Assembly: GCF_000091665.1 (NCBI RefSeq)
Contig: NC_000909.1
Span: 60,001-92,000, forward strand
DNA: 32,000 nt
From: Methanocaldococcus jannaschii DSM 2661
GTDB lineage: Archaea; AGJL01; Methanococci; Methanococcales; Methanocaldococcaceae
Reading direction: 5' to 3'
Shown: positions 6,966 to 32,000 of the stretch, one piece after another
Numbering within the stretch: the first letter of the stretch is position 1
Layout: each line of letters starts with the position of its first letter
The notes under the pieces: generated by a model
The model's database searches: none
Told to the model about the DNA's origin: nothing
What the model saw: the letters and a program-made list of their open reading frames with translations, nothing else
Program-made: the position numbers and the translations under genes

Positions 6966-7214
6966 ATGCTCAATATAAACAAAGAGATAGCACAAATAGA
7001 AACTGAATTGAATGAATTGAAAAAATTGAGAGATGAAATCTCTGAAAGGATTGAAAAATTAGAAATAAAGTTATTAAAATTGAAAGCATTAGCTATTCCA
7101 GAGGAGGAATTTGAAGAGGATTATGAAGAAATTATAGAAGATGTTAAAAAATCTCTGGATAAAAAAGAGACTGTGCCAGCAGAAGAGGCTTTGAAAGAAT
7201 TGGGATTATTATGA
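6966..7214 (+). CDS. relB: RelB-like antitoxin (archaeal type, coiled-coil and acidic)
   Basis: 82-aa acidic helical protein. Its stop overlaps the downstream ATG (ATGA at 7211-7214), and its partner is a clear RelE-fold toxin. Confidence 0.7.
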   Translation: MLNINKEIAQIETELNELKKLRDEISERIEKLEIKLLKLKALAIPEEEFEEDYEEIIEDVKKSLDKKETVPAEEALKELGLL

Positions 7215-7483
7215 AGTTTAACGTTGAGATACATAAAAGAGTCTTAAAAGATTTAAAGGATTTGCCTCCCTCAAACTTAAAGAAGTTTAAAGAACTAATA
7301 GAAACATTAAAAACCAATCCCATTCCAAAAGAAAAATTTGATATTAAAAGATTAAAAGGCAGTGATGAGGTTTATAGAGTTAGAATTGGAAAATTTAGAG
7401 TTCAATATGTTGTTTTATGGGATGATAGAATAATAATAATTAGAAAGATAAGTAGAAGAGAAGGAGCTTATAAAAATCCCTAA
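7211..7483 (+). CDS. relE: RelE/ParE-family mRNA interferase toxin
   Basis: 90 aa. The sequence ...KRLKGSDEVYRVRIGKFRVQYVVLWDDRIIIIRKISRREGAY is the typical RelE C-terminal beta-sheet signature. There is a 4-nt overlap with relB. Confidence 0.85.
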   Translation: MKFNVEIHKRVLKDLKDLPPSNLKKFKELIETLKTNPIPKEKFDIKRLKGSDEVYRVRIGKFRVQYVVLWDDRIIIIRKISRREGAYKNP

Positions 7484-7561: not shown

Positions 7562-8010
7562 ATGATTATTCTTTTAGATTTAAATGGAACAATAGCTACT
7601 GATGGGAAGATAAAAGAGGGAGTTAAAGAGAGATTAACTATTTTAAAAGAAAGAGCTGAAATATATATTTTATCGGCAGATACTTCGGAACTTTAAACGA
7701 TATTGCTAAAAGCTTAAATGTCAAAGGTATGAAGGTAGATAGAGAGAAATACGGCAGTGAAAAGATAGCTAAATTAAAAATTTTAGAAGAGTTAAAAAAA
7801 GAAAATCCCAACAAAAAAATTATTGCTATAGGAAATGGAAATAACGATGAACTATTATTAAAAAATGCTGATTTAGGCATCTGCGTTATTGGAGATGAAG
7901 GAGCTTGGAGTAAAACGATATTAAGCTCTGATATAGTTGTTAAAGATATAAATGATGCTTTAGATTTATTGTTAAATGAAAATAGATTGAAAGCTACAAG
8001 TAGGGATTAA
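7562..8010 (+). pseudogene. HAD-superfamily / soluble P-type-ATPase-like phosphatase (COG4087-like), split by a 1-nt frameshift near 7684
   Basis: Frame 2 from ATG 7562 gives MIILLDLNGTIATDG...ILSADTSEL* with stop 7694-7696. Frame 1 is open from 7660 and continues ..FGTLNDIAKSLNVKGMKVD...AIGNGNNDELLLKNADLGICVIG... to 8010. HAD motif I (DLNGT) is in the first part and motif III (GNGNND) in the second. One extra T in act-tcg would restore ADTFGTLND. Confidence 0.8.
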
Positions 8011-8012
8011 AA

Positions 8013-9089
8013 TTATAGCAATCTCTTTATAGCATTCCAGACTAAATAACTTTGAGGCTTTAAAATTCTCTTTTGCGGATTTAAAAATAAAATATTCTCC
8101 TTAACTAAGTAAACATAAACTGGTGTTGGAATATCTTTCTTAGGTATCTCATACTTATCCTTAAATAATCTTAATGCTTTAATGATATCTTCTTTATTTA
8201 TCTCAATAACTTCATTTCCAACCTCTACCCTTGGCTTTGAATAATCTAAAATTTCTAAAAACATATCTAATTTAGAAATCTCATCATTTAACAGGTAATC
8301 TAAAACTTCCTTTAAATCTTTAAAATTGCTTTCTTCAACAACATATTTTATATCCTTTGGCTTCCCTCCTACGTAATTATAGATTAACTCTTTATCTTCA
8401 TTAGTTAAGCTGATGTTATTCTCTTTAGCTAAAAAATCCATAAACTTTAAGGCAGTTTCTTTATCAAAATCATCCACCAATAGATACTTAGCCCTACCAT
8501 CTAACATCGCCTCATTATAAACCCTCTCTATAAACAAACTATCAGAACTTAAACAAAAAACATGACATAGATGCTTATGCTTTGTTAGAGAAACAAAATA
8601 ATTAAACAACTCATAGATTAAGAATCCATTAATCTTCATATCACCAATCTTTTGTAATTCATCTATAATTAAAATTGGCTGTTTCCCTTCTTTTTTAATA
8701 TCCATTAATACTTTAGTTATATATCTAAAGACATTTTTAGTTGTCTTTTTCTTCAAGATTTCTTCTAATGTATTTTTTGGTGCTGGAATACCACATAGAG
8801 AAGGAACGTCCTTTATCAAACTCTTTATAATTTCTACTGGCTTTTTATTTCCCTCATATTCTTCAAATAAAACTTCAATGAAGTCGTCATACTTAGAAAT
8901 AAAAATCTCCCTTAAATCAAAATAAAACACAACATATTTATCCTTGTCCAACCTATTGTTAATAATCTCATTGATTAAGGCAGTTTTACCGCTATTTATA
9001 GGGCCGTAGATAAAATAAACGTCATCTGGCTCTCTATTTAATATATGAAGTATTTCAGCAATCTCCTTTTCTCTATCAAAGAATTTCAT
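8013..9089 (-). CDS. Archaeal AAA-type ATPase (Arch_ATPase / COG1672-like), paralog 1
   Basis: 358 aa. It has FFDREKEI, a Walker A (YGPINSGKT) and a Walker B (ILIIDELQ). It is about 55-60% identical by eye to the neighbouring gene. GGGGTG lies upstream of the ATG. Confidence 0.8.
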
Positions 9090-9119
9090 AGAAACACCCC
9101 TTCTTTATCAAACAAAGCT

Positions 9120-9170
9120 CTATAATAACTTTTTTATAGCATTCCATACTAAAAAACTTTGAGGCTTTAA
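9120..9170 (-). pseudogene. Orphan duplicate of the last ~16 codons of the 9233-10324 ATPase gene
   Basis: The minus strand reads ..[17 protein letters not shown] (stop = cta 9120-9122). The 38 nt at 9133-9170 are identical to 9255-9292 inside the intact gene. No upstream ORF is attached (stop at 9180-9182). Confidence 0.8.
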
Positions 9171-9242
9171 AGGAAACTTTTAGTAAAAGTTTCATCAAAA
9201 CTCGTCCATTAAGTTGGGACTTTCAGTCCCAATTAATGTCCA
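9171..9242. repeat. Modular palindromic repeat element separating the intact gene end from its orphan duplicate
   Basis: Hairpin gaaactttt (9173-9181) / aaaagtttc (9185-9193). Linker gtttcatcaaaa. Hairpin cattaa-g-ttgggact (9207-9221), loop ttc, agtcccaa-ttaatg (9225-9238). The same module order occurs at 30907-31004. Confidence 0.75.
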
Positions 9243-10324
9243 TTCAGTAATTTCTTTATAGCATTCCATACTAAAAAACTTTGAGGCTTTAATGTCCCTT
9301 CTATTGGATTTAAAAACAATATATTTTTCTTAACTAAAAACTCTCTAATATTCTTAGGTATTTTTATATCTTCAATTTCATAATTTTCTTTAAATATCTT
9401 CAATGCATCAACTATTTTGTTATAAAGCTCTTCATCATCTTCTTTAACATCCTCTAAGAAGTATTTTAGCTTTTGGATTTCTTCTTTGAGCATGAACTCC
9501 AAGATATCCTTTAACTCCTTACCAAGCTTTAGCTTAATAATCACATCATAAACATCCTTTGGCTTCCCACCAACATAGCTATAAATTAGCTCCTTCTCAT
9601 CCTCAGAAAGTTTCCTGCCTAAAATATCCTCAGATAAAAAATCCATAAATTTTAAGGCAGTTTCCTTATCAAAGTCATCCACTAATATATAGTCAGCTCT
9701 CCCTCTGAGTTCAGCCCTATCATAAACATACTCAATAAATAAACTATCAGAGCTTAAACAAAAACAGTGCGTTATATGCAATTCCTTAGTCAATCTAACA
9801 AAAAAATTAAATAAATCATCTATCAACTCTCCATTAGATTTCAATCCTTTTAATCTCTGCAGTTCGTCAATAATAATTACAGGCTTTAGACCCTTTTTAT
9901 TCATCTCTCTAAAAACTCTCTCCAAGTATCTAAAAACATCAAAACCCTTCTGTTTGGATAGAATAACTTTTGCCAAGTCAGAAGGGAGAATAATGCTCTC
10001 ATTGAACAGTTTTGCTGTTTTTTCTATAAATTTGATGCCTTCAACTAAAACATCAGCATCTTTTACCATCTGTTTAAATTTGTTATCCTCCCTAATTTCA
10101 AACATTATATCAAAAAAATCACTATAAGATGATATTCTAACTCCTCTTAGATTATAGTAGAAGATTCTATATTTTTTGTCATCTTTTAATCTGTTGATTA
10201 TCTCCATCATTAGAGTAGTTTTCCCACTGTTTATAGGGCCGTAGATGAAGTAGATATTATCTGGAGTTTCATCCAAAATGCCCAAAATTTCATTAATCTC
10301 CCTCTCCCTATCAAAGAATTTCAT
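9233..10324 (-). CDS. Archaeal AAA-type ATPase (Arch_ATPase / COG1672-like), paralog 2
   Basis: It has FFDREREI, a Walker A (YGPINSGKT) and a Walker B (VIIIDELQ). The track start 10330 is TTG; ATG 10324 gives MKFFDRE, as in the paralog. The last three codons and the stop (NGH*) are encoded by the palindromic element arm ttaatgtccatt. Confidence 0.8.
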
Positions 10325-10390
10325 TATCAATCCCTCTATGTTGATTATTTTATTCTAAATCTATATGAGATTGCAAATTTATAACTTTTG

Positions 10391-11539
10391 TTAAATCAAC
10401 ATATCAAACACCTTTTCTGCTGTTTTTGACGTTAGCTCATAAATTGTTACTGATACATCTGATATTTGCCTCAAACTAACTGTTGGTTTTGTGTTTATGC
10501 AGATAGAGTAAATCTTTATCTTCCTTCTCTGCTTCTCCTCCTTAATCTTCTCTAAGAACTCTAAAGAGACTTCACACTCTCCATCTGTTATAAAGACAAT
10601 ATCTCCATTAAACTTTAACGCCTCTCTTAAAGGTTTTTCAAAGTTTGTCCCTCCACCATAAAACACGGATGCAAATTCCAAAATCTCATCAAAAGATACC
10701 TTTTTTTCATAAATCTTTATATCTCTAACTCCATCATCAAATAAAATTGATATATATCTTTTATTTCTTTTTAAAGATATATCCATCAAACATAAGGCTA
10801 TTGCTTTAGCCCAAATCTCCTTATTTCCTCTCATAGAGCCACTTAAATCTAAGCAAACAACAAAATCCCCGCAGTTTTCATTATTCTCCAATATTTTATA
10901 ATTTAGAGGTTTATTTTCATTATATCTTCTCAATAAATCAACAAACAATATCTCTTCAGCAAAGTTTTTGTATTCTGATGATAATAAGTTTATTAAATTA
11001 TTTCCCAAGTTTATTGAATACTTCTCTCCAGAGAAGTGTTTAATCTTCGTTTTATACTTTTTTATAGCCATTCTTTTAAACTTTCCTAAAACTTTCATAA
11101 ATTCTTTAAGTTTGTTGTTTTTTAATAATTTTTCAGTCAATTCTAATTTTTTCTTTGGGTCTGTATAGCTTTTATATCCCTCACCAGAACCAAAAGAACT
11201 AAAAGATGATGTTATATTTTCCATATAACTCTCAAGCTCATCCAACAATTCACTTATATCCTCTTCTCTGCCCTTTTCTTTCAACTCCTTAAGCTTCTCA
11301 CAAAAGAATTCAGTGGCTATTAAAGAATAGTTTTCATCCAACGTAGTTATGGATTTTACATTCTTAAATCTTCTATCCCTCACAATCTTTTTGATTAAAT
11401 CAGTTTCAGTCAAAATTTCAACTTCATATTTAAAGAAGAGATAAAACACTATCTCCGTCTCTCTTTCACTTAAATGGAAGGTAATCTTATTCTTACATCC
11501 CTCCCAAACCATCTTATCATATTTGTCATATCTAATCAT
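10391..11539 (-). CDS. von Willebrand factor A (vWA) domain protein with a MIDAS motif and an uncharacterised N-terminal ~220 aa
   Basis: 382 aa. The C-terminal half has VVCLDLSGSM (DxSxS), ...GGGTNF..., and IVFITDGE, typical of vWA/MIDAS domains partnered with MoxR/RavA ATPases (ViaA/CoxE-like). Confidence 0.8.
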   Translation of the reverse strand: MIRYDKYDKMVWEGCKNKITFHLSERETEIVFYLFFKYEVEILTETDLIKKIVRDRRFKNVKSITTLDENYSLIATEFFCEKLKELKEKGREEDISELLDELESYMENITSSFSSFGSGEGYKSYTDPKKKLELTEKLLKNNKLKEFMKVLGKFKRMAIKKYKTKIKHFSGEKYSINLGNNLINLLSSEYKNFAEEILFVDLLRRYNENKPLNYKILENNENCGDFVVCLDLSGSMRGNKEIWAKAIALCLMDISLKRNKRYISILFDDGVRDIKIYEKKVSFDEILEFASVFYGGGTNFEKPLREALKFNGDIVFITDGECEVSLEFLEKIKEEKQRRKIKIYSICINTKPTVSLRQISDVSVTIYELTSKTAEKVFDMLI

Positions 11540-11619
11540 TCTTTCACCATAATACTAAATCTAAAATAAATCATAAAATATATATACTATCTTGTATAAA
11601 AGTATTACACGGTGAGAGT

Positions 11620-11961
11620 ATGGAGGTTAATCTCTTAAGTATATCTATAAAGCCCCCAATAAAAATACCTAAGAATAAAACGGTAGAGTTAGATGTTGAT
11701 TGGAACATTGAGTATAAAAAATTAGACGCAAAAAAATTCAACTTTGTTTGTAATATCAAAGCTTATGGAGACTTTTCCTTTGAAGCAAATATTGAAGGAG
11801 AGATAAGCACTGAAAATGATTATGATAACATCCCAGACTTTATATCTGTAAGTATAGTAGAGAATTTGATGAAATCTCTTCCTAAGTTAGTTAGCTATGC
11901 TCAACAATTCAGAATTGAGGAAAATGTATTTGTTAATCAGCCTTTATCTCTTGCATCATAA
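11620..11961 (+). CDS. Hypothetical 113-aa protein
   Basis: ATG is preceded by acggtgaga (GGTGA RBS, 5-nt spacer). The composition is non-repetitive and acidic. I recognise no motif. It is on the opposite strand to all its neighbours. Confidence 0.55.
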   Translation: MEVNLLSISIKPPIKIPKNKTVELDVDWNIEYKKLDAKKFNFVCNIKAYGDFSFEANIEGEISTENDYDNIPDFISVSIVENLMKSLPKLVSYAQQFRIEENVFVNQPLSLAS

Positions 11962-11962
11962 T

Positions 11963-12071
11963 TATAGTTTTTTGCAAACATCTTGAAATACATAAGGTTA
12001 TAATGAACGCCTTCTTATTGAAGGCGTTCAATTTTCCTTTATAATTTTAATTACTTTTGCAAAAAACTATA
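11963..12071. mobile_element. 109-nt MITE-like element, copy 1: perfect 16-bp terminal inverted repeats plus an 11-bp central hairpin
   Basis: TIRs are tatagttttttgcaaa (11963-11978) and tttgcaaaaaactata (12056-12071). The central hairpin is tgaacgccttc (12004-12014) / gaaggcgttca (12020-12030) with loop ttatt. It is about 85% identical over its full length to 31892-32000. Confidence 0.75.
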
Positions 12072-12674
12072 TAAACCATTATTTCCAAACTCTTTTAAAA
12101 TTAATGGGATAAATTCATAAACTAACTCCTTATCATATTTATAAAGCTCTTTTATCACATAGAGAGAATATTCGTTAAAATTTTCAAAAAGTTTTAATAA
12201 AATTGCCTCCTTATTATCTGATTTCATGATTAACTTAACCAGCACTTTGGCATAAACTTCATTATCCAATTTCTTTATAAGTTTTGGATATGCATAGATT
12301 GTTAGTTTTGAAGGGATGTTTGCCAAAGCCTCAGCACTTGCAAATCTAATGCATTCAAACTCACTATCTAAGAGTTTTATTAAATAAGGAATATAAATAT
12401 AAACCAAATTTGGATATTTAATGCCAACTTTTTCTATAATTTTTATGCAATAATATATAATAGCCTTATTCTTTGAGTCAGAAGTGTAGTGTGTAGATAT
12501 TATATCCTCAAACCCCCTCTCCTTCGTTGATGTCAATAACTCAAAAACATCATCTAAAATGTTTAACTTTGTTATCTCATCAACTTCCATTTGATATAGT
12601 TCCTTCAAAACCTTTAATTTTTCTCTATTTCCATAATTTAGTTTTAATTTCTTTCTATATTCTTCACAGTTCAT
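12051..12674 (-). CDS. HEAT/armadillo-like helical repeat protein
   Basis: 207 aa, all-helical in character, with a HEAT-type motif ECIRFASAEALANIPSK. Its start overlaps the upstream ATPase stop by 11 nt. The last 7 codons (YSFLQK*) are encoded inside the right TIR of the MITE-like element. Confidence 0.6.
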   Translation of the reverse strand: MNCEEYRKKLKLNYGNREKLKVLKELYQMEVDEITKLNILDDVFELLTSTKERGFEDIISTHYTSDSKNKAIIYYCIKIIEKVGIKYPNLVYIYIPYLIKLLDSEFECIRFASAEALANIPSKLTIYAYPKLIKKLDNEVYAKVLVKLIMKSDNKEAILLKLFENFNEYSLYVIKELYKYDKELVYEFIPLILKEFGNNGLYSFLQK

Positions 12675-13794
12675 TTAAAATCCCTTCAATATAATTATTA
12701 AATTCATCCGTCTCTTTAATTACCTCATCAATAAAGTCAGTTTTTCTTTTGTTTATTATAGCTTCATTCCTTATTTTTTTCAATTCTAATCTTATATATG
12801 CCATCTTACAGAGAATTTCAATTAACTTGTTATAATCTTTTTTACACTCTCCAATTTTCTTAATATCTATGTACTTAAGTTCATTTTTGAGATTTTTAAT
12901 AATTTCTGCCTTATCCAGCACTTGCTCAGCATATTTGTTTGTTATATCAAATATTACCTTTGAAACAATTAAGATATCATCTATATCATCCCAAAATATA
13001 TGTCTCAATATCTCTAAATCTTCAATTTCTGCCTCTCTTCTACCATTTAGATAGGCGAAGCACTTAATAGCTTTAACTGACTTTTTAAATCTCCTATCTG
13101 AAATATAGATGTGGTTTTGGGATAATTTCTTCTTTATATCTACCAAATATCCAATGATATTCTCTATATCAACTTCATTAGCTTTTTCTTGCATCTTTCT
13201 AAGTTCTTTTATTGATATGGTAGTTTTTGGTTTATACTCTTCATCTAATTTAATGAGCTTTACTAAATTCTCACAGCTTCTTATCCCTCTAACCACTTTC
13301 CTAAATAAAAATCTATCATAGAATGCCAACAACTCATTCTCCTCTGGCAATTCATTTGATGCACCAAACAAACTAATTAAAGGCACTTTCTCAATCTTAT
13401 CTCCATTGTGGTAAATTCTTTCATTGATTATTGATAATAAAGCGTTTAATATTGAACTGTTAGCCTTAAAAACTTCATCTAAGAATGCTATTTCTGCAGT
13501 TGGTAGATAACCAGATGTTTTTCTAACGAATCTGTCATTATCCTTTAACTCTTTAATGCTTAAAGGGCCGAATAACTCATCTTCGGTTGTGAATCTTGTT
13601 ATAAGTTTTTCAAAGTAGTTGGCGTTTATATGGGAAGCTATAGCCCTAATTAATTGTGATTTTGCAACTCCAGGATTTCCTAAGAATACAGTATGCTCAT
13701 TTGCTAAGATAGAAGTTAAGGCTATATCAATCTCCTCCCTTCTTTCTAAGAAATATGAGTTTAACTCCTCCCTAATCTTTTCAAGTTTGTGCAT
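12664..13794 (-). CDS. RavA/MoxR-type AAA+ ATPase
   Basis: Walker A is VFLGNPGVAKSQL. Walker B and sensor region are IAFLDEVFKANSSILNALLSIINER. Both align closely with my recollection of E. coli RavA ([34 protein letters not shown]). ATG 13794 (MHKLEKI) is preferred; the track start is TTG 13806. Confidence 0.85.
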   Translation of the reverse strand: MHKLEKIREELNSYFLERREEIDIALTSILANEHTVFLGNPGVAKSQLIRAIASHINANYFEKLITRFTTEDELFGPLSIKELKDNDRFVRKTSGYLPTAEIAFLDEVFKANSSILNALLSIINERIYHNGDKIEKVPLISLFGASNELPEENELLAFYDRFLFRKVVRGIRSCENLVKLIKLDEEYKPKTTISIKELRKMQEKANEVDIENIIGYLVDIKKKLSQNHIYISDRRFKKSVKAIKCFAYLNGRREAEIEDLEILRHIFWDDIDDILIVSKVIFDITNKYAEQVLDKAEIIKNLKNELKYIDIKKIGECKKDYNKLIEILCKMAYIRLELKKIRNEAIINKRKTDFIDEVIKETDEFNNYIEGILNEL

Positions 13795-13798
13795 GATT

Positions 13799-14182
13799 TC
13801 ACTCAATGCTGATTGTGGTTAGTTGAGCAAGTTCAACGCTACTAATACCTTTCAATTTATTTGTAAATTCTATTATCCTATCCCTCTGCCCTTTAATCGC
13901 AATCATCCTAATAATTTTTCCTTCAAATGGAATTTCGAGGGATATAATTACAATATCCTTATATTGGCTTTCCAATTTAACGATGTCTTCAACTGCCTTT
14001 GAGTTATATATAACGGTTATCTCACCAATCTTTGATTCAATTCTACTCAACCAGTCGTATTTTTTTACGTAGTATTCCAAAGCTCTTCTTATAAATTCTG
14101 AACGGGATATTCTTTCCTTATTAATAATTTCATCAACTTCCTTTAATAGATTTTTCTCGATGGTTAATGAAATCCGCTCCAT
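13799..14182 (-). CDS. NikR-fold transcription regulator (ribbon-helix-helix plus ACT-like C-domain) lacking all canonical Ni ligands
   Basis: The N-terminal RHH is ISLTIEKNLLKEVDEII..RSEFIRRALEYYV. The C-domain aligns with NikR (VIYN..., ...IAIKG...). The whole translation contains no His and no Cys. Its stop is 4 nt before (or 8 nt overlapping) the ATPase start. Confidence 0.7.
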   Translation of the reverse strand: MERISLTIEKNLLKEVDEIINKERISRSEFIRRALEYYVKKYDWLSRIESKIGEITVIYNSKAVEDIVKLESQYKDIVIISLEIPFEGKIIRMIAIKGQRDRIIEFTNKLKGISSVELAQLTTISIE

Positions 14183-14354
14183 GATATCACATGTAATATT
14201 TATTTTCTGGATAGTATTAATAACGATGTTTTATAAAAATATTGCTATTAAAGATTAATTTAAATATACAAATATTATGTTATGAATATTTTAATCTAAG
14301 ATAAAATTTTATATTAAAAATTAAACCGAAAATATTATATATGATGAATTTTGT

Positions 14355-14500
14355 TATATGGAGTATGCCATAGGAATCACTCCCACAATGGAACTTACGC
14401 AGAGGCTATACTCTATTTGCTATTGATGATACTTTTAGGCTTTCTTTATGATTCAAAAAAATGCGTAAGTTCTATTGAATAGGGCTCACCTCTGTGAGGA
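14355..14500. repeat. GC-enriched island with inverted repeats in the nikR-like/mrtB divergent intergenic region (degenerate palindromic-element copy or a structured RNA)
   Basis: There is a 16-nt inverted repeat, caatGgaacttacgca (14386-14401) and tgcgtaagttcTattg (14462-14477), with 15/16 complementary. A small hairpin cctc-tgt-gagg sits at 14489-14499. The ccatagga motif is shared with the 285-309 and 31014-31041 hairpins. Confidence 0.5.
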
Positions 14501-14600
14501 ATTCAAAATTTTTTTAAAGATTTTAAAGATTTTTTTAATTTTATCATTTTAATATTATTATTTTAACATTTTTTAGTAATTTTTAGGATAAAATAGAAAA

Positions 14601-14608
14601 TTTTATAT
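14601..14608 (+). promoter_or_regulatory. Candidate archaeal TATA box (tttatata, preceded by a purine-rich BRE-like gaaaat) for the mrt operon
   Basis: It is a perfect match to the methanogen TATA consensus TTTATATA, located 62 nt upstream of ATG 14670. This would give a leader of about 35 nt containing GGTG. Confidence 0.4.
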
Positions 14609-14669
14609 ACCTATTACTATCATTTTCTATAGCTGTAGTAATATATTAACAAAAAGGTTGGTGTTGGTA

Positions 14670-16013
14670 ATGTTACATTATGAAGATAGAATAGATTTGT
14701 ATGATGAAAGAGGAAAGTTGTTGGAGGAAAATGTTCCATTAGAAGCGATAAGTCCTCTAAAGAACCCAACAATTGAGAAAATAGTCAATGACATTAAGAG
14801 GAGCGTTGCTATAAACTTGGCAGGAATAGAAAACGCTTTAAAGACTGGAGCTGTTGGAGGAAAGGCATGTTTCTGTCCAGGGAGAGAGTTAGATTTACCA
14901 ATTGTAGAAAACGCTGAAATTATTGCTGAAAAGATTAAAAGAATGGTTCAAATTGAAGAAGATGATGACACAGTTGTTAAGTTAATCAACGGAGGTAAGC
15001 AATTACTATTACAATTGCCATCAAAGAGGTTGAGAGTAGCTGCTGATTACACAGTATCAGCGCTGATTGGAGGAGGAGCAACTGTTCAGGCAATTGTTGA
15101 TGCCTTTGATGTAGATATGTTTGACGCTCCTGTAGTAAAAACAGCAGTTATGGGGAGATACCCACAGACAGTAGATTTCCATGGTGCTAATATCGCTACA
15201 TTATTAGGACCTCCAGTTTTATTGGAAGGATTAGGTTATGGTTTGAGAAATATTATGGCAAACCATATTGTAGCAGTTACAAGGAAAAAAACATTGAATG
15301 CTGTTGCTTTGGCATCAATATTGGAGCAGACCGCAATGTTTGAAACGGGAGATGCTTTAGGGGCATTTGAAAGATTGCACTTATTAGGTTTAGCATTTCA
15401 GGGATTAAATGCCAACAACTTAACTTATGAGCTTGTTAAGGAAAACGGAAAGGATGGAACAGTTGGAACTGTAGTTGCTTCAGTTGTTGAAAGGGCTTTG
15501 GAGGATGGGGTCATAAGACCATTAAAAACAATGCCTTCTGGTTTCACCGTTTATGAACCAGTTGATTGGGCTTTATGGAATGCCTATGCTGCGTCAGGTT
15601 TAGTTGCTGCAGTTATTGTTAATGTTGGGGCAGCAAGGGCAGCTCAAGGAGTAGCTTCAACTGTCCTCTACTACAACGATATCTTAGAATACGAAACTGG
15701 TTTGCCAAGCGTTGATTTTGGTAGGGCAGAGGGGACAGCAGTTGGTTTCTCATTCTTCTCTCACTCAATATATGGAGGAGGAGGGCCTGGAACATTCCAT
15801 GGAAACCACGTCGTTACAAGACACTCAAAAGGATTTGCTATCCCATGTGCTGCAGCTGCAATGTGTTTAGACGCAGGAACTCAAATGTTCTCAGTTGAAA
15901 GAACATCAGCATTAGTAGGAACTGTTTATAGTGCTATTGACCACTTAAGAGAACCACTAAAGTATGTTGCTGAAGGTGCTGTAGAGGTTAAAGAGAAAGA
16001 AAAAGTAATTTAA
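14670..16013 (+). CDS. mrtB: Methyl-coenzyme M reductase isoenzyme II, beta subunit
   Basis: 447 aa from ATG 14670 (GGTG lies 6 nt upstream; the track start 14658 is TTG). [15 protein letters not shown] at the N-terminus and overall length match the MCR beta subunit. It is first in a B-G-A operon that lacks the C and D genes, which is the isoenzyme II arrangement I recall for M. jannaschii. Confidence 0.9.
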
Positions 16014-16025
16014 AATGGTGATTGG

Positions 16026-16826
16026 ATGGCATACAAACCACAATTTTATCCTGGAAATACTTTAATTGCTGAGAATAGAAGAAAGCACATGAATCCAGAG
16101 GTTGAGTTAAAAAAGCTGAGAGACATTCCAGATGATGAGATAGTCAAAATATTGGGGCATAGAAACCCTGGAGAAAGTTATAAGACGGTTCATCCACCAT
16201 TGGAAGAGATGGATTTTGAAGAAGACCCAATTAAAGATATTGTTGAGCCGATTCAGGGGGCTAAAGAAGGAGTTAGAGTTAGATACATCCAGTTCGCTGA
16301 TTCGATGTATAACGCTCCAGCTCAGCCTTACGATAGGGCAAGAACATACATGTGGAGATTTAGAGGGATTGATACAGGAACACTATCAGGAAGGCAAGTT
16401 ATTGAGATGAGAGAGCTTGACTTAGAAAAAATCTCCAAGAATTTCTTAATTGACACAGAGTTCTTCGACCCGGCAACTTGTGGAATTAGAGGAGCTACTG
16501 TCCACGGGCACTCATTAAGATTGGATGAAAACGGTTTGATGTTCGATGGTTTGCAGAGATACATCTATGATGAAAAGACAGGACACGTTTTGTATGTTAA
16601 AGACCAGGTTGGAAGACCATTGGATGAGCCAGTAGATGTTGGAGAGCCATTACCACACGATTATTTGGCAAAAATAACAACAATTTACAGAAAGGATAAC
16701 ATCGGAATGAGAGAAGATAAAGAAGCTTTAGAAGTTGTTCAAATAATCCATGAGGCAAGAACAAAAGGAGGATTTGGTTTAGAAGTATTTAAAAAAGATT
16801 TGAAAAAGAGATTAGGTGAAGAATAA
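16026..16826 (+). CDS. mrtG: Methyl-coenzyme M reductase isoenzyme II, gamma subunit
   Basis: 266 aa. [24 protein letters not shown] is the canonical MCR gamma N-terminus. There is a 12-nt gap after mrtB and a TAATG overlap with mrtA. Confidence 0.92.
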
Positions 16827-18484
16827 TGGATGTTGAGAAAAAACTCTTCCTAAAGGCTTTAAAAGAAAAGTTTGAAGAAGACCCAAAAGAAAAATACACC
16901 AAATTTTATATATTTGGAGGATGGAGACAGTCAGCAAGAAAAAGAGAGTTTGTTGAATTTGCTCAAAAATTAATTGAAAAGAGAGGAGGAATTCCATTCT
17001 ACAACCCAGACATTGGGGTTCCATTAGGGCAGAGAAAGTTAATGACCTACAAAATATCAGGAACTGATGCATTTGTTGAAGGGGATGATTTACACTTCTG
17101 TAATAACGCAGCAATACAGCAATTGGTTGATGATATTAAGAGAACTGTTATTGTAGGGATGGATACAGCTCACGCTGTCTTAGAGAAGAGATTAGGGGTA
17201 GAGGTTACACCAGAAACAATTAACGAATACATGGAAACAATTAACCACGCTTTACCAGGTGGAGCTGTTGTCCAAGAGCACATGGTTGAAGTCCATCCAG
17301 GTTTAGTTTGGGACTGTTACGCTAAGATATTCACAGGAAATGATGAATTAGCTGATGAAATTGACAAGAGATTTTTAATAGACATAAATAAAGAATTCCC
17401 AGAAGAACAAGCAGAGCAAATTAAGAAATATATTGGAAATAGGACTTACCAAGTAAGTAGGGTTCCTACAATAGTTGTTAGATGCTGTGATGGAGGGACT
17501 GTTTCAAGATGGAGTGCTATGCAAATAGGGATGAGTTTCATTACTGCCTATAAGTTATGTGCTGGAGAAGCTGCTATCGCTGACTTCTCATACGCTGCAA
17601 AGCACGCTGATGTCATTCAAATGGGTATGATACTGCCAGCAAGAAGAGCAAGAGGGCCTAATGAACCAGGAGGGGTGCCATTTGGAATATTCGCTGACAT
17701 AATACAGACTTCAAGAGTTTCAGATGACCCGGCACAGGTAACATTGGAGGTTATTGGTGCAGCAGCTACCTTTTATGACCAAGTTTGGTTAGGAAGCTAT
17801 ATGTCTGGAGGAGTAGGATTTACACAGTATGCGTCAGCAACATACACAGATGACATCTTAGATGATTTTGTTTATTATGGAATGGACTATGTTGAGAAGA
17901 AGTATGGATTATGTGGAGTTAAGCCAAGCATGGAGGTTGTTAAAGATATAGCAACTGAAGTTACATTATATGGATTAGAGCAGTATGATGAGTATCCAGC
18001 TTTATTAGAAGACCACTTTGGTGGGTCACAAAGAGCGGGGGTTACAGCGGCAGCAGCAGGATGTTCAGTAGCATTTGCAACAGGAAACTCAAATGCTGGA
18101 ATTAATGGATGGTATCTAAGCCAGATATTACATAAGGAGTATCACAGCAGATTAGGATTCTATGGTTATGACTTACAAGACCAGTGTGGAGCAGCTAACT
18201 CACTATCAATCAGAAGTGATGAAGGTTTATTGCATGAATGTAGAGGACCAAATTATCCAAACTACGCAATGAACGTTGGACATCAGCCAGAGTATGCTGG
18301 AATTGCCCAAGCTCCCCATGCGGCAAGGGGAGATGCATTTTGCTTAAACCCAATAATTAAGGTAGCGTTTGCTGACGACAACTTGATATTTGACTTCAAG
18401 TGGCCAAGAAAATGTATAGCTAAAGGGGCTCTAAGAGAGTTTGAGCCAGCTGGAGAGAGAGATTTAATCATTCCAGCAGCATAA
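16826..18484 (+). CDS. mrtA: Methyl-coenzyme M reductase isoenzyme II, alpha subunit
   Basis: 552 aa. [12 protein letters not shown]..., [28 protein letters not shown] and [11 protein letters not shown] are conserved MCR alpha active-site regions. Confidence 0.95.
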
Positions 18485-18505
18485 TCTTTATTATCTTATT
18501 TTAAG

Positions 18506-18516
18506 TTTTATTTTTT
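18506..18516 (+). terminator. Oligo-T tract (ttttatttttt), candidate archaeal terminator after mrtA
   Basis: It is the first long T-run, 22 nt after the mrtA stop, and more T-runs follow. Archaeal RNAP terminates at oligo-T. No experimental support is visible. Confidence 0.35.
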
Positions 18517-18745
18517 GGACTTTATTTTTAATTTTAAAATTTTAATTGGAGGGCATAATAATAGATTCAAACATTTTATCAAAAGTTTTAGATAAAATAA
18601 TATTAATGGAAGAGACTTTGAGATAGAGAATCAAGCTGTTGGCATAGTTTCAGACCAGTGTATGTTCCTCCACTTGTTAGAAAAAGATTTATACTAAATA
18701 AGATATTAGGTTTTAATTAAATTTAAATCAGACTGAGGGAGAGGT

Positions 18746-19495
18746 ATGAAAATCTCTATCTGTGGAAAGGGAGGCTGTGGAAAAAGCTCTATAACAACTT
18801 TATTGGCAAAGGAGTTTGCTAAAAAAGGACATAATGTCTTGGTTATTGATGGAGACGAATCTAATCTAAGTTTGCATAAATTGCTTGGTATGGATTTGCC
18901 AAAGGACTTTATAGAGTATCTTGGAGGACGAAAGGAGTTCATGAAGAAGTTGAGAGAAAAAATGGATGGTAAAGAAGTTGAGTTATTTGAGGGAGAGATA
19001 TCTATAGATTCTTTACCAAAAGAGTATTTAGTAGAGAAAGATAATATCAAACTTTTAGCAATTGGAAAAATCCATGATTTTGGAGAAGGTTGTGCATGTC
19101 CAATGGGTGCTTTGTTAAGAGAGTTTTTAAAATCTTTAAAGTTGAAGGATAAAGAGGTTGTTATCGTTGACACTGAAGCTGGAATAGAGCATTTTGGTAG
19201 AGGGGTTGAGGGAGGATGTGATGTTATTATTGCAATTATAGACCCAACCTATGAATCAATAAGATTATCTAAGAAGATAGAGGAAATTGGAGAGAAATTG
19301 GGTAAGAAGGTTTATTTCATAGTTAATAAGGTAGATGATGAGACAAAAGATTTAATTCTTGAAAATGTCAATAAAGATAAGGTTATTGCAGTTATTCCAA
19401 ACAATAAGGAGATTATGAAATGTGGATTAATGGGAGAGGAGTTAAATGCTGAATTATCTGAAATTAAAGATGTTGTAGAGATTTTAACTAAATAA
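18746..19495 (+). CDS. CooC-type (MinD/ParA-class) nickel-insertion accessory ATPase homolog
   Basis: It has a deviant Walker A (CGKGGCGKSS), VIDGDESN, and a CxC metal-binding motif (GEGCACPMG) characteristic of CooC/AcsF-type Ni chaperones. RBS gggagaggt precedes the ATG. Confidence 0.75.
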   Translation: MKISICGKGGCGKSSITTLLAKEFAKKGHNVLVIDGDESNLSLHKLLGMDLPKDFIEYLGGRKEFMKKLREKMDGKEVELFEGEISIDSLPKEYLVEKDNIKLLAIGKIHDFGEGCACPMGALLREFLKSLKLKDKEVVIVDTEAGIEHFGRGVEGGCDVIIAIIDPTYESIRLSKKIEEIGEKLGKKVYFIVNKVDDETKDLILENVNKDKVIAVIPNNKEIMKCGLMGEELNAELSEIKDVVEILTK

Positions 19496-31891: not shown

Positions 31892-32000
31892 TATAGTTTT
31901 TGCAAATATTTAGAATACATTAAGGCATATAATGAACGCCTTCTTATAGAAGGCGGTCAATCTTCCTTCGTCAATTTAATAACTTTTGCAAAAAACCATA
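31892..32000. mobile_element. 109-nt MITE-like element, copy 2 (ends exactly at the window edge)
   Basis: TIRs are tatagtttttgcaaa (31892-31906) and tttgcaaaaaaccata (31985-32000). The central hairpin is tgaacgccttc / gaaggcgGtca with one mismatch. It is collinear with 11963-12071 at roughly 85% identity. Confidence 0.7.

Follow-up and report, generated by a model that had tools for sequence, protein, structure and literature searches.

A conserved MoxR-vWA module with a HEAT-repeat protein beside the mrtBGA operon of Methanocaldococcus jannaschii: a putative RavA/ViaA-like chaperone of Methanococcales

Introduction

What is the function of the four genes that are transcribed divergently from the MCR-II operon, mrtBGA, in Methanocaldococcus jannaschii DSM 2661? 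These genes, MJ0080, MJ0079, MJ0078 and MJ0077, lie on the minus strand of the stretch of 32,000 nucleotides (nt) analysed in this study (NC_000909.1, positions 60,001 to 92,000 of the forward strand), referred to below as "the window", within which all positions are counted. An exact-sequence look-up identified them by these names. They are annotated as uncharacterised, and our literature search found no mention of MJ0077 to MJ0080, in agreement with the initial annotation of the window, which had described them as an uncharacterised four-gene unit consisting of a NikR-fold regulator, an AAA+ ATPase, a HEAT-like protein and a von Willebrand factor A (vWA) protein. Two functions had been proposed for the unit: maturation of MCR-II or another metalloenzyme, and defence or genetic conflict.

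Pairs of a MoxR ATPase and a vWA protein have been proven to drive the maturation or activation of cNOR, Rubisco and the Mo-Cu CODH. How MCR receives its cofactor F430 and is assembled remains unsolved, and this limits heterologous MCR expression for methane bioconversion. Here, we show that the MJ0080-MJ0077 region is a real, conserved and hitherto unstudied module, and that MJ0079, MJ0078 and MJ0077 very probably belong to the MoxR-vWA chaperone class. On balance, and with a confidence only somewhat above even, we favour the reading that the module is an ATP-driven remodelling chaperone, a Methanococcales-specific, three-part variant of the widespread RavA/ViaA-like pair with a possible Ni/Co-enzyme client.

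Results

A MoxR-type motor, a vWA protein and a HEAT-repeat solenoid

The assignment of MJ0079 to the RavA/MoxR-type AAA+ ATPases was borne out. The protein matched the Pfam models bpMoxR (7.7e-55), AAA_5 and AAA_lid_8, and in the PDB alignment it was aligned to residues 10-299 of E. coli RavA (1.6e-51), its best ATPase match, with which it shares the GxPGxAKS P-loop and the FLDE(V/I)(F/W)KA Walker B motif. Walker A K49/S50, Walker B D110/E111, N151, R165 and R238/R239 do not vary among the 12 Methanococcales orthologues compared, and these intact Walker A and B, sensor and arginine residues, together with the AAA_lid_8 domain, place the protein within the MoxR/RavA subfamily. However, MJ0079 is not RavA proper, as the alignment ends at RavA residue 299, the LARA domain is absent, and the NCBIfam RavA model gave 210 bits against a cut-off of 681, covering positions 7-308 of 498. 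The bpMoxR model is named for beta-propeller conflict systems; RavA itself presumably carries this domain (PF20030), according to its UniProt entry. As MJ0079 matches RavA itself, the bpMoxR match provides no evidence for a conflict role.

The vWA identity of MJ0077 also held. It matched Pfam VWA_2 at 9.8e-6 and the ViaA model over residues 218-350 at 7e-16, and all five residues of its metal ion-dependent adhesion site (MIDAS), D231/S233/S235/T298/D319, are invariant across 40 homologues. The AF2 model (pLDDT 84) consists of an N-terminal helical domain (approximately residues 1-165) and a C-terminal vWA domain, with which the protein ends; neither Pfam nor the model revealed an effector domain. 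As in ViaA, the complete MIDAS (DxSxS...T...D) is located in a C-terminal vWA domain of a partner protein, and the gene is adjacent to the ATPase gene in most relatives. However, full-length equivalence to ViaA was not obtained (58 bits against a cut-off of 500), as the vWA part alone aligned and the N-terminal domain was not detected as ViaA-like. Foldseek searches against the PDB likewise matched the vWA half only, with NorD among the matches.

The third protein, MJ0078, is a HEAT-repeat protein, as the initial annotation had supposed, even though its HEAT matches in Pfam are below threshold. Its 20 homologue clusters all come from Methanococcales, and when its profile was searched against 1.84e9 representative sequences, E-values below 1e-30 were obtained for its own family only; the remaining matches were generic multi-HEAT proteins, repeatedly at positions 93-140. 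The AF2 model (pLDDT 86) contains 13 helices, and the top Foldseek matches were all ARM/HEAT solenoids (TMq about 0.6). The profile, the model and the structural matches agree with the tandem helix repeats, forming an alpha-solenoid, that define HEAT proteins. No orthologue outside Methanococcales was found among the homologue clusters, in the profile search or at the 139 AAA+ loci that we compared. Two other affiliations, as the separated N-terminal part of longer vWA proteins or as a relative of DUF6744, a companion of the viral pairs described below, were rejected on hhalign probabilities of 0.3-0.5%.

Gene arrangement and its conservation in Methanococcales

The four open reading frames (ORFs) are present at the positions and on the strand first proposed (Table 1), and so are the spacings between them. 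The stop codon of MJ0080 is located 4 nt ahead of the ATG start of MJ0079 or, if the TTG start is used, overlaps the gene by 8 nt; the MJ0079 stop and the MJ0078 start overlap by 11 nt; the gap between MJ0078 and MJ0077, previously given as about 510 bp, measures 511 nt; and the listed start of mrtB lies 475 nt away from MJ0080. The divergent orientation of the module and mrtBGA in the window was confirmed.

Table 1. Positions of the module genes and associated features within the window
Feature	Positions	Strand	Description
MJ0080	13799..14182	-	RHH + NikR_C
MJ0079	12664..13806	-	RavA-class MoxR AAA+ ATPase; 376 residues from ATG 13794, 380 residues from TTG 13806
MJ0078	12051..12674	-	HEAT-repeat alpha-solenoid, 207 residues
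Palindromic MITE	11963..12071	not assigned	109 nt
MJ0076	11620..11961	+	113-residue ORFan between the HEAT and vWA genes
MJ0077	10391..11539	-	vWA adaptor, N-terminal helical domain + C-terminal vWA
Intergenic region MJ0080/mrtB, divergent	14183..14657		conserved non-coding blocks

The gap between MJ0078 and MJ0077 had been interpreted as an interruption by a miniature inverted-repeat transposable element (MITE) and one opposite-strand ORF. Both are present, and the account of each needs correcting. The MITE folds with a dG of -41.5 and has perfect terminal inverted repeats of 16 nt (TATAGTTTTTTGCAAA). It reaches into the HEAT gene, whose last six codons and stop (YSFLQK*) it supplies. Further copies are located at window positions 31892-32000, and in the Methanocaldococcus loci L140 (1331-1440) and L011 (6298-6412 and 9198-9311); one copy sits at the junction of an mrtBGA deletion in M. 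sp. 28A. No Rfam match was found in the MITE or in the MJ0080-mrtB intergenic region. The antisense ORF, MJ0076 by the same look-up, is a conserved gene rather than debris. Orthologues with 82-86% identity occupy the equivalent slot in M. sp. 28A, M. fervens and metagenome contigs, and one with 36% identity occupies the equivalent antisense slot of a Methanothermococcus-like contig (L144). MJ0076 had no match in Pfam, PHROGs or the PDB. Judging from this conservation, it is a genuine gene, perhaps a hitherto unrecognised accessory of the module. Like the four genes of the unit, it is subject to strong purifying selection; across the five, the ratio of nonsynonymous to synonymous substitution (dN/dS) is 0.02-0.12 (0.02-0.03 for MJ0079, 0.04-0.07 for both MJ0080 and MJ0077, and 0.09-0.12 for MJ0076).

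Synteny was reconstructed from exact-protein look-ups and one metagenome scan, with the ORFs of related loci compared to the window proteins. The arrangement AAA+-HEAT-vWA, which we call type A, occurs in the M. jannaschii group, M. vulcanius, Methanotorris formicicus and Methanothermococcus. Its components are also found in M. infernus and M. indicus, with the vWA gene apart from the AAA+/HEAT pair. All type-A loci examined share the 11-nt overlap of the AAA+ and HEAT genes. The vWA gene adjoins these two in M. vulcanius and M. formicicus, lies beyond MJ0076 in the jannaschii group, and has no linkage to them in M. infernus and M. indicus; MJ0080 is limited to the jannaschii/vulcanius subclade. 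The "four-gene unit" thus stands in part: the AAA+ and HEAT genes are invariably coupled, while the linkage of the vWA gene varies and MJ0080 belongs to the unit in one subclade only. The conserved core is the AAA+/HEAT pair plus a more loosely linked vWA gene. A paralogous arrangement, type B, in which an AAA+ gene is accompanied by a longer vWA gene without a HEAT gene, was found in M. villosus, M. igneus and one Methanocaldococcus metagenome-assembled genome (MAG).

The relBE genes (6966-7483) and the two tandem ATPase_2/MJ1010-like genes (8013-10330) next to the module are absent from the equivalent locus of M. fervens and M. sp. 28A. Because of this absence they were rejected as members of the unit and, by the same comparison, are recent insertions specific to M. 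jannaschii relative to these two organisms. Between relBE and the ATPase_2 genes, a HAD-like gene (7562-8010) is split in M. jannaschii (44 + 93 residues), its counterpart in relatives having 153 residues.

MJ0080 and the divergent intergenic region

MJ0080 had been described as a nickel-regulator-fold protein, and the fold is indeed that of NikR. Both of the domains that make up NikR, an N-terminal DNA-binding ribbon-helix-helix (RHH) domain and the C-terminal NikR_C tetramerisation domain, were detected above the Pfam gathering cut-offs (RHH_1, 3e-11; NikR_C, 9e-12), and the protein can be aligned end to end with Pyrococcus horikoshii NikR (2bj1), even though it falls below the NCBIfam NikR cut-offs (74 against 111 bits). 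The nickel part of the description did not hold. The four ligands of the square-planar, high-affinity His3Cys nickel site of P. horikoshii NikR (H78', H89, H91 and C97) correspond to S72, E83, P85 and I90 in MJ0080; the first three of these do not vary among 6 orthologues, the fourth is I or L, and the M. jannaschii protein contains no histidine or cysteine at all. As the ligands are replaced and no His or Cys is present, MJ0080 is no sensor of nickel in spite of its NikR fold. In M. sp. 28A, which lacks mrt at this locus, MJ0080 still immediately precedes the AAA+ gene. It is probably the module's own ligand-sensing regulator.

The intergenic region between MJ0080 and mrtB contains two strongly conserved non-coding blocks in a four-species alignment. 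One (14311-14387) comprises a TATA-like stretch plus GTGGGAGTGATTCCTATGGCA, and the other (14478-14503) is a CTCAC-AGAG-GTGAG hairpin. Both are retained in M. sp. 28A despite the loss of mrtBGA, and they may be candidates for a promoter, an operator or a leader.

Association with mrt and other Ni/Co-cofactor genes

In M. jannaschii, M. fervens and M. vulcanius, mrtBGA is divergent to the module, and all other flanking genes differ. In Methanothermococcus, one gene is located between mrt and the module (L004, 6740-7954), and it encodes a nickel-pincer-nucleotide-dependent ornithine cyclodeaminase (TIGR00300, 5.5e-151). The mrt genes of M. fervens (L091, 4650-9250) have decayed through at least 5 lesions (three frameshifts in mrtB, one in mrtG and a loss of 182 codons in mrtA), and its vWA gene (L091, 12147-13293) carries two frameshifts and one stop; the four genes between decayed mrt and decayed vWA are intact. 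Other genes for Ni/Co-dependent functions are also found nearby. MJ0084 (18746-19495, plus strand) encodes a CooC-type nickel-insertion ATPase (2.5e-27 to Carboxydothermus hydrogenoformans CooC1) in which the CXC motif is kept, and a CooC with this motif flanks the locus in M. jannaschii, M. fervens and M. sp. 28A and the type-B system of M. villosus. In M. vulcanius, cdhA-cdhB-fdx-cdhC follow the vWA gene, and in M. formicicus, cbiE is located three genes upstream of the type-A module.

One rival explanation of this neighbourhood is that the module is a dedicated assembly or F430-loading factor for MCR-II (Mrt), acting on isoenzyme II only and co-regulated with it from the shared divergent promoter region. 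The adjacency to mrt, which persists in both Methanocaldococcus and Methanothermococcus despite reshuffling of the other flanks, the finding of both mrt and vWA as pseudogenes in M. fervens, and the conserved blocks in the shared intergenic region all argue for it. However, we consider it unlikely. In addition to the loci without mrt described in the next paragraph, in M. infernus and M. indicus the vWA gene has no linkage to the others, no Methanobacteriales homologue occurs among the best 120 AAA+ matches, mrt of Methanothermobacter has different neighbours, and MJ0080 has no nickel site.

Several observations weigh against the broader reading of a chaperone with a Ni/Co client as well. In M. 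sp. 28A, the segment carrying mrtBGA (equivalent to window 14503-18541) is replaced by approximately 360 nt and a MITE, and all five genes of the module region are intact. Two independently assembled Methanothermococcus contigs (L003 and L145) lack mrtBDGA at this place; from exactly the mrtB start codon on (breakpoint at L004 5954), they are identical to the mrt-bearing contigs L004 and L146, and the module is intact in both forms. As the identity starts exactly at this codon, MCR-II at the Methanothermococcus locus behaves, by this comparison, as a flexible cassette. The M. formicicus module has no mrt within 8 kb, in Methanothermobacter the neighbour of mrt is mvh, and no MoxR or vWA protein is named in reviews of MCR accessory genes. 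The closest relatives of MJ0079 outside Methanococcales lie in islands resembling viruses or mobile genetic elements (MGEs), in Ferroglobus and two metagenome contigs. Finally, the Ni/Co associations were noticed post hoc in few contexts that share ancestry, in methanogen genomes that are rich in Ni/Co genes, so they can be graded as suggestive only.

The linkage to mrt is conserved in part, recurring in two genera and being absent in M. sp. 28A, in the two Methanothermococcus loci and in M. formicicus. A strict dependency on mrt is contradicted, as the module is intact where mrt is absent. The proposal of MCR-II or metalloenzyme maturation draws some support from the mrt adjacency, the co-decay in M. 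fervens and the nearby cbiH (see below), cbiE, cooC and cdh genes. Enzymes with Ni/Co cofactors are the best-supported client candidates, MCR-II first, followed by the cobamide pathway and CODH/ACS, and the support is suggestive. A client that depends on Ni/Co or on a tetrapyrrole, whether a single enzyme or a pathway, is a tentative proposal, to which we give less than an even chance, and that it is specifically MCR-II is improbable.

A cbiH-linked paralogue and the class I chelatases

The type-B genes (L094, 9261-12367; L093, 8766-13381; L012, 4856-8059) are located directly downstream of cbiH, which encodes cobalt-precorrin C17-methyltransferase, in all three lineages that have them, with otherwise different flanks. 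The spacing is a 16-nt overlap in M. villosus, no gap in the MAG and 476 nt in M. igneus, and no other locus among the 139 has the cbiH link. This arrangement might be explained by two paralogous RavA/ViaA-like machines for tetrapyrrole cofactors, type B serving the cobamide pathway and type A serving F430 loading or exchange, or assembly, of MCR-II, an idea that we rate as a little less likely still than the dedicated MCR-II factor.

Alternatively, the AAA+/vWA pair could be the motor of a class I (Mg/Co) chelatase-like enzyme, comparable to BchI/BchD or CobS/CobT, for metal insertion or ring modification on the cobamide or F430 tetrapyrrole. The coupling of type B to cbiH, translational where the genes overlap, and the cbiE gene near the M. 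formicicus module would fit this, as would weak matches to cobaltochelatase and BchI models and the phage CobT-like proteins among the structural matches of MJ0077. However, the chelatase models reached E-values of only 0.016-0.033, compared with 6e-62 for RavA, and no gene for a CobN/BchH-like large subunit was found in the neighbourhoods examined. Moreover, in the anaerobic corrin pathway, cobalt insertion precedes the CbiH step. A chelatase motor therefore seems quite improbable.

Relatives in viruses and mobile elements

Relatives of the AAA+ gene number more than 3,000. Among the 139 loci compared, which are bacterial, archaeal and viral (IMG/VR), most have a homologous vWA gene following it on the same strand. 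The AAA+-vWA pair is kept in 40 of the 45 viral loci, often with DUF6744 between the two, and no HEAT subunit was found in the viral loci examined. Relatives are carried by large phages and bicaudaviruses, and full-length viral families exist in PHROGs for both proteins (phrog_19600 at 9e-78 and phrog_24053 at 6e-38). Searched against a viral structure library, the MJ0077 model matched phage VWFA proteins over both domains (E 7e-23 to 1e-20, TMq up to 0.68) and ORF892 of Acidianus two-tailed virus (ATV) at 4e-13. In a neighbour-joining tree, type A and type B group together, and nearest to them are genes of archaeal MGE-like islands, followed by a viral contig.

The islands themselves deserve description. 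Two of them, L005 (Ferroglobus placidus) and L009, contain small co-directional ORFs and two different MoxR-vWA pairs plus DUF6744; L005 also carries Csx3, and L009 also carries HEPN/NTase. A third, L010, contains a RavA-like pair plus TnpB. All three look like integrated viruses or other mobile elements.

The module might accordingly be a domesticated assembly chaperone of viral or MGE origin that remodels a structural assembly, as ATV p618/p892 do in tail development, and not a metalloenzyme. The tree, the full-length PHROG and structural matches and the frequency of the pair in viruses are in its favour. However, the tree is crude and gives no direction of transfer, the module has a stable chromosomal position without virion or integrase genes nearby, and DUF6744 is absent and unrelated to the HEAT protein. 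We regard this reading as very unlikely; whatever the function, the virus and MGE relatives bear on the origin of the family.

The least probable of the explanations is the defence role that had been proposed, namely a ternary MoxR-vWA system acting against viruses or in genetic conflicts, as the bpMoxR match, the relatives in viruses and in islands with Csx3, HEPN/NTase and TnpB, and the nearby relBE, ATPase_2 genes and MITE are outweighed by neighbours that are missing from the M. fervens and M. sp. 28A locus, by the lack of any PADLOC match for the four proteins, by a locus that is syntenic between species, and by an invariant architecture under purifying rather than diversifying selection. 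In the published ternary systems, the third component is VMAP, iSTAND, FtsH or a beta-propeller (Kaur et al. 2020, PMC7159879). The M. jannaschii module resembles them in combining MoxR, vWA and a third protein, with bpMoxR as the best Pfam model, but its third protein is a small HEAT solenoid, none of the four published components is present, no effector domain occurs, the architecture is constant, and the host is a unicellular archaeon. As no defining feature of such systems was found, the defence reading is weak.

Discussion

We favour an ATP-driven MoxR-vWA chaperone as the function of the module and, reasoning from the protein family, propose how it may work. MJ0079 would form a hexameric AAA+ motor. 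MJ0077 would be its adaptor, with the MIDAS of the vWA domain engaging an acidic residue on the motor or the client, and with the N-terminal helical domain providing a second contact. MJ0078, translationally coupled to the motor, would be a HEAT scaffold that adds to or changes client specificity. MJ0080 would be an RHH repressor with an ACT-like sensor for a signal other than nickel, with control over the operon and perhaps also over the divergent promoter region that is shared.

If type A does act on MCR-II, the missing ATP-dependent MCR assembly factor would be supplied, and the occurrence of the type-A variant beside mrt, together with its cbiH-linked sister, makes it a concrete candidate for the MCR assembly question. 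Whatever the client, a HEAT protein as third subunit would show how this chaperone family gains specificity. At the same time, recognition of MJ0080 as a nickel-blind NikR-fold regulator corrects a misleading annotation.

Among the known systems, RavA-ViaA of E. coli provides the best sequence match to the ATPase, and the vWA domain of the partner protein matches the ViaA model. However, its clients LdcI, Nuo and Frd are lacking in the archaeal host, and the HEAT subunit and the RHH regulator are extra in the M. jannaschii module. NorQ-NorD, CbbQ-CbbO and CoxD-CoxE likewise combine a MoxR-clade motor with a vWA-MIDAS adaptor and have metalloenzymes as clients, a logic that the neighbouring Ni/Co enzymes, as putative clients, would share. 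However, MJ0079 is of the RavA type rather than of the CbbQ/NorQ subfamily, CbbQ_C is absent, and CoxE was matched at an E-value of 0.019 only. The pairs of ATV (p618/p892) and of phages such as Bacillus phage 0305phi8-36 (MoxR-VWFA) share the AAA+/vWA pairing. The vWA model matches the phage VWFA proteins over their full lengths, and also ATV ORF892, and the ATPase matches a viral PHROG over its full length. The viral pairs are virus-encoded, often accompanied by DUF6744, and the ATV pair acts on virion tails, whereas the M. jannaschii genes are chromosomal, syntenic between species and accompanied by a HEAT subunit.

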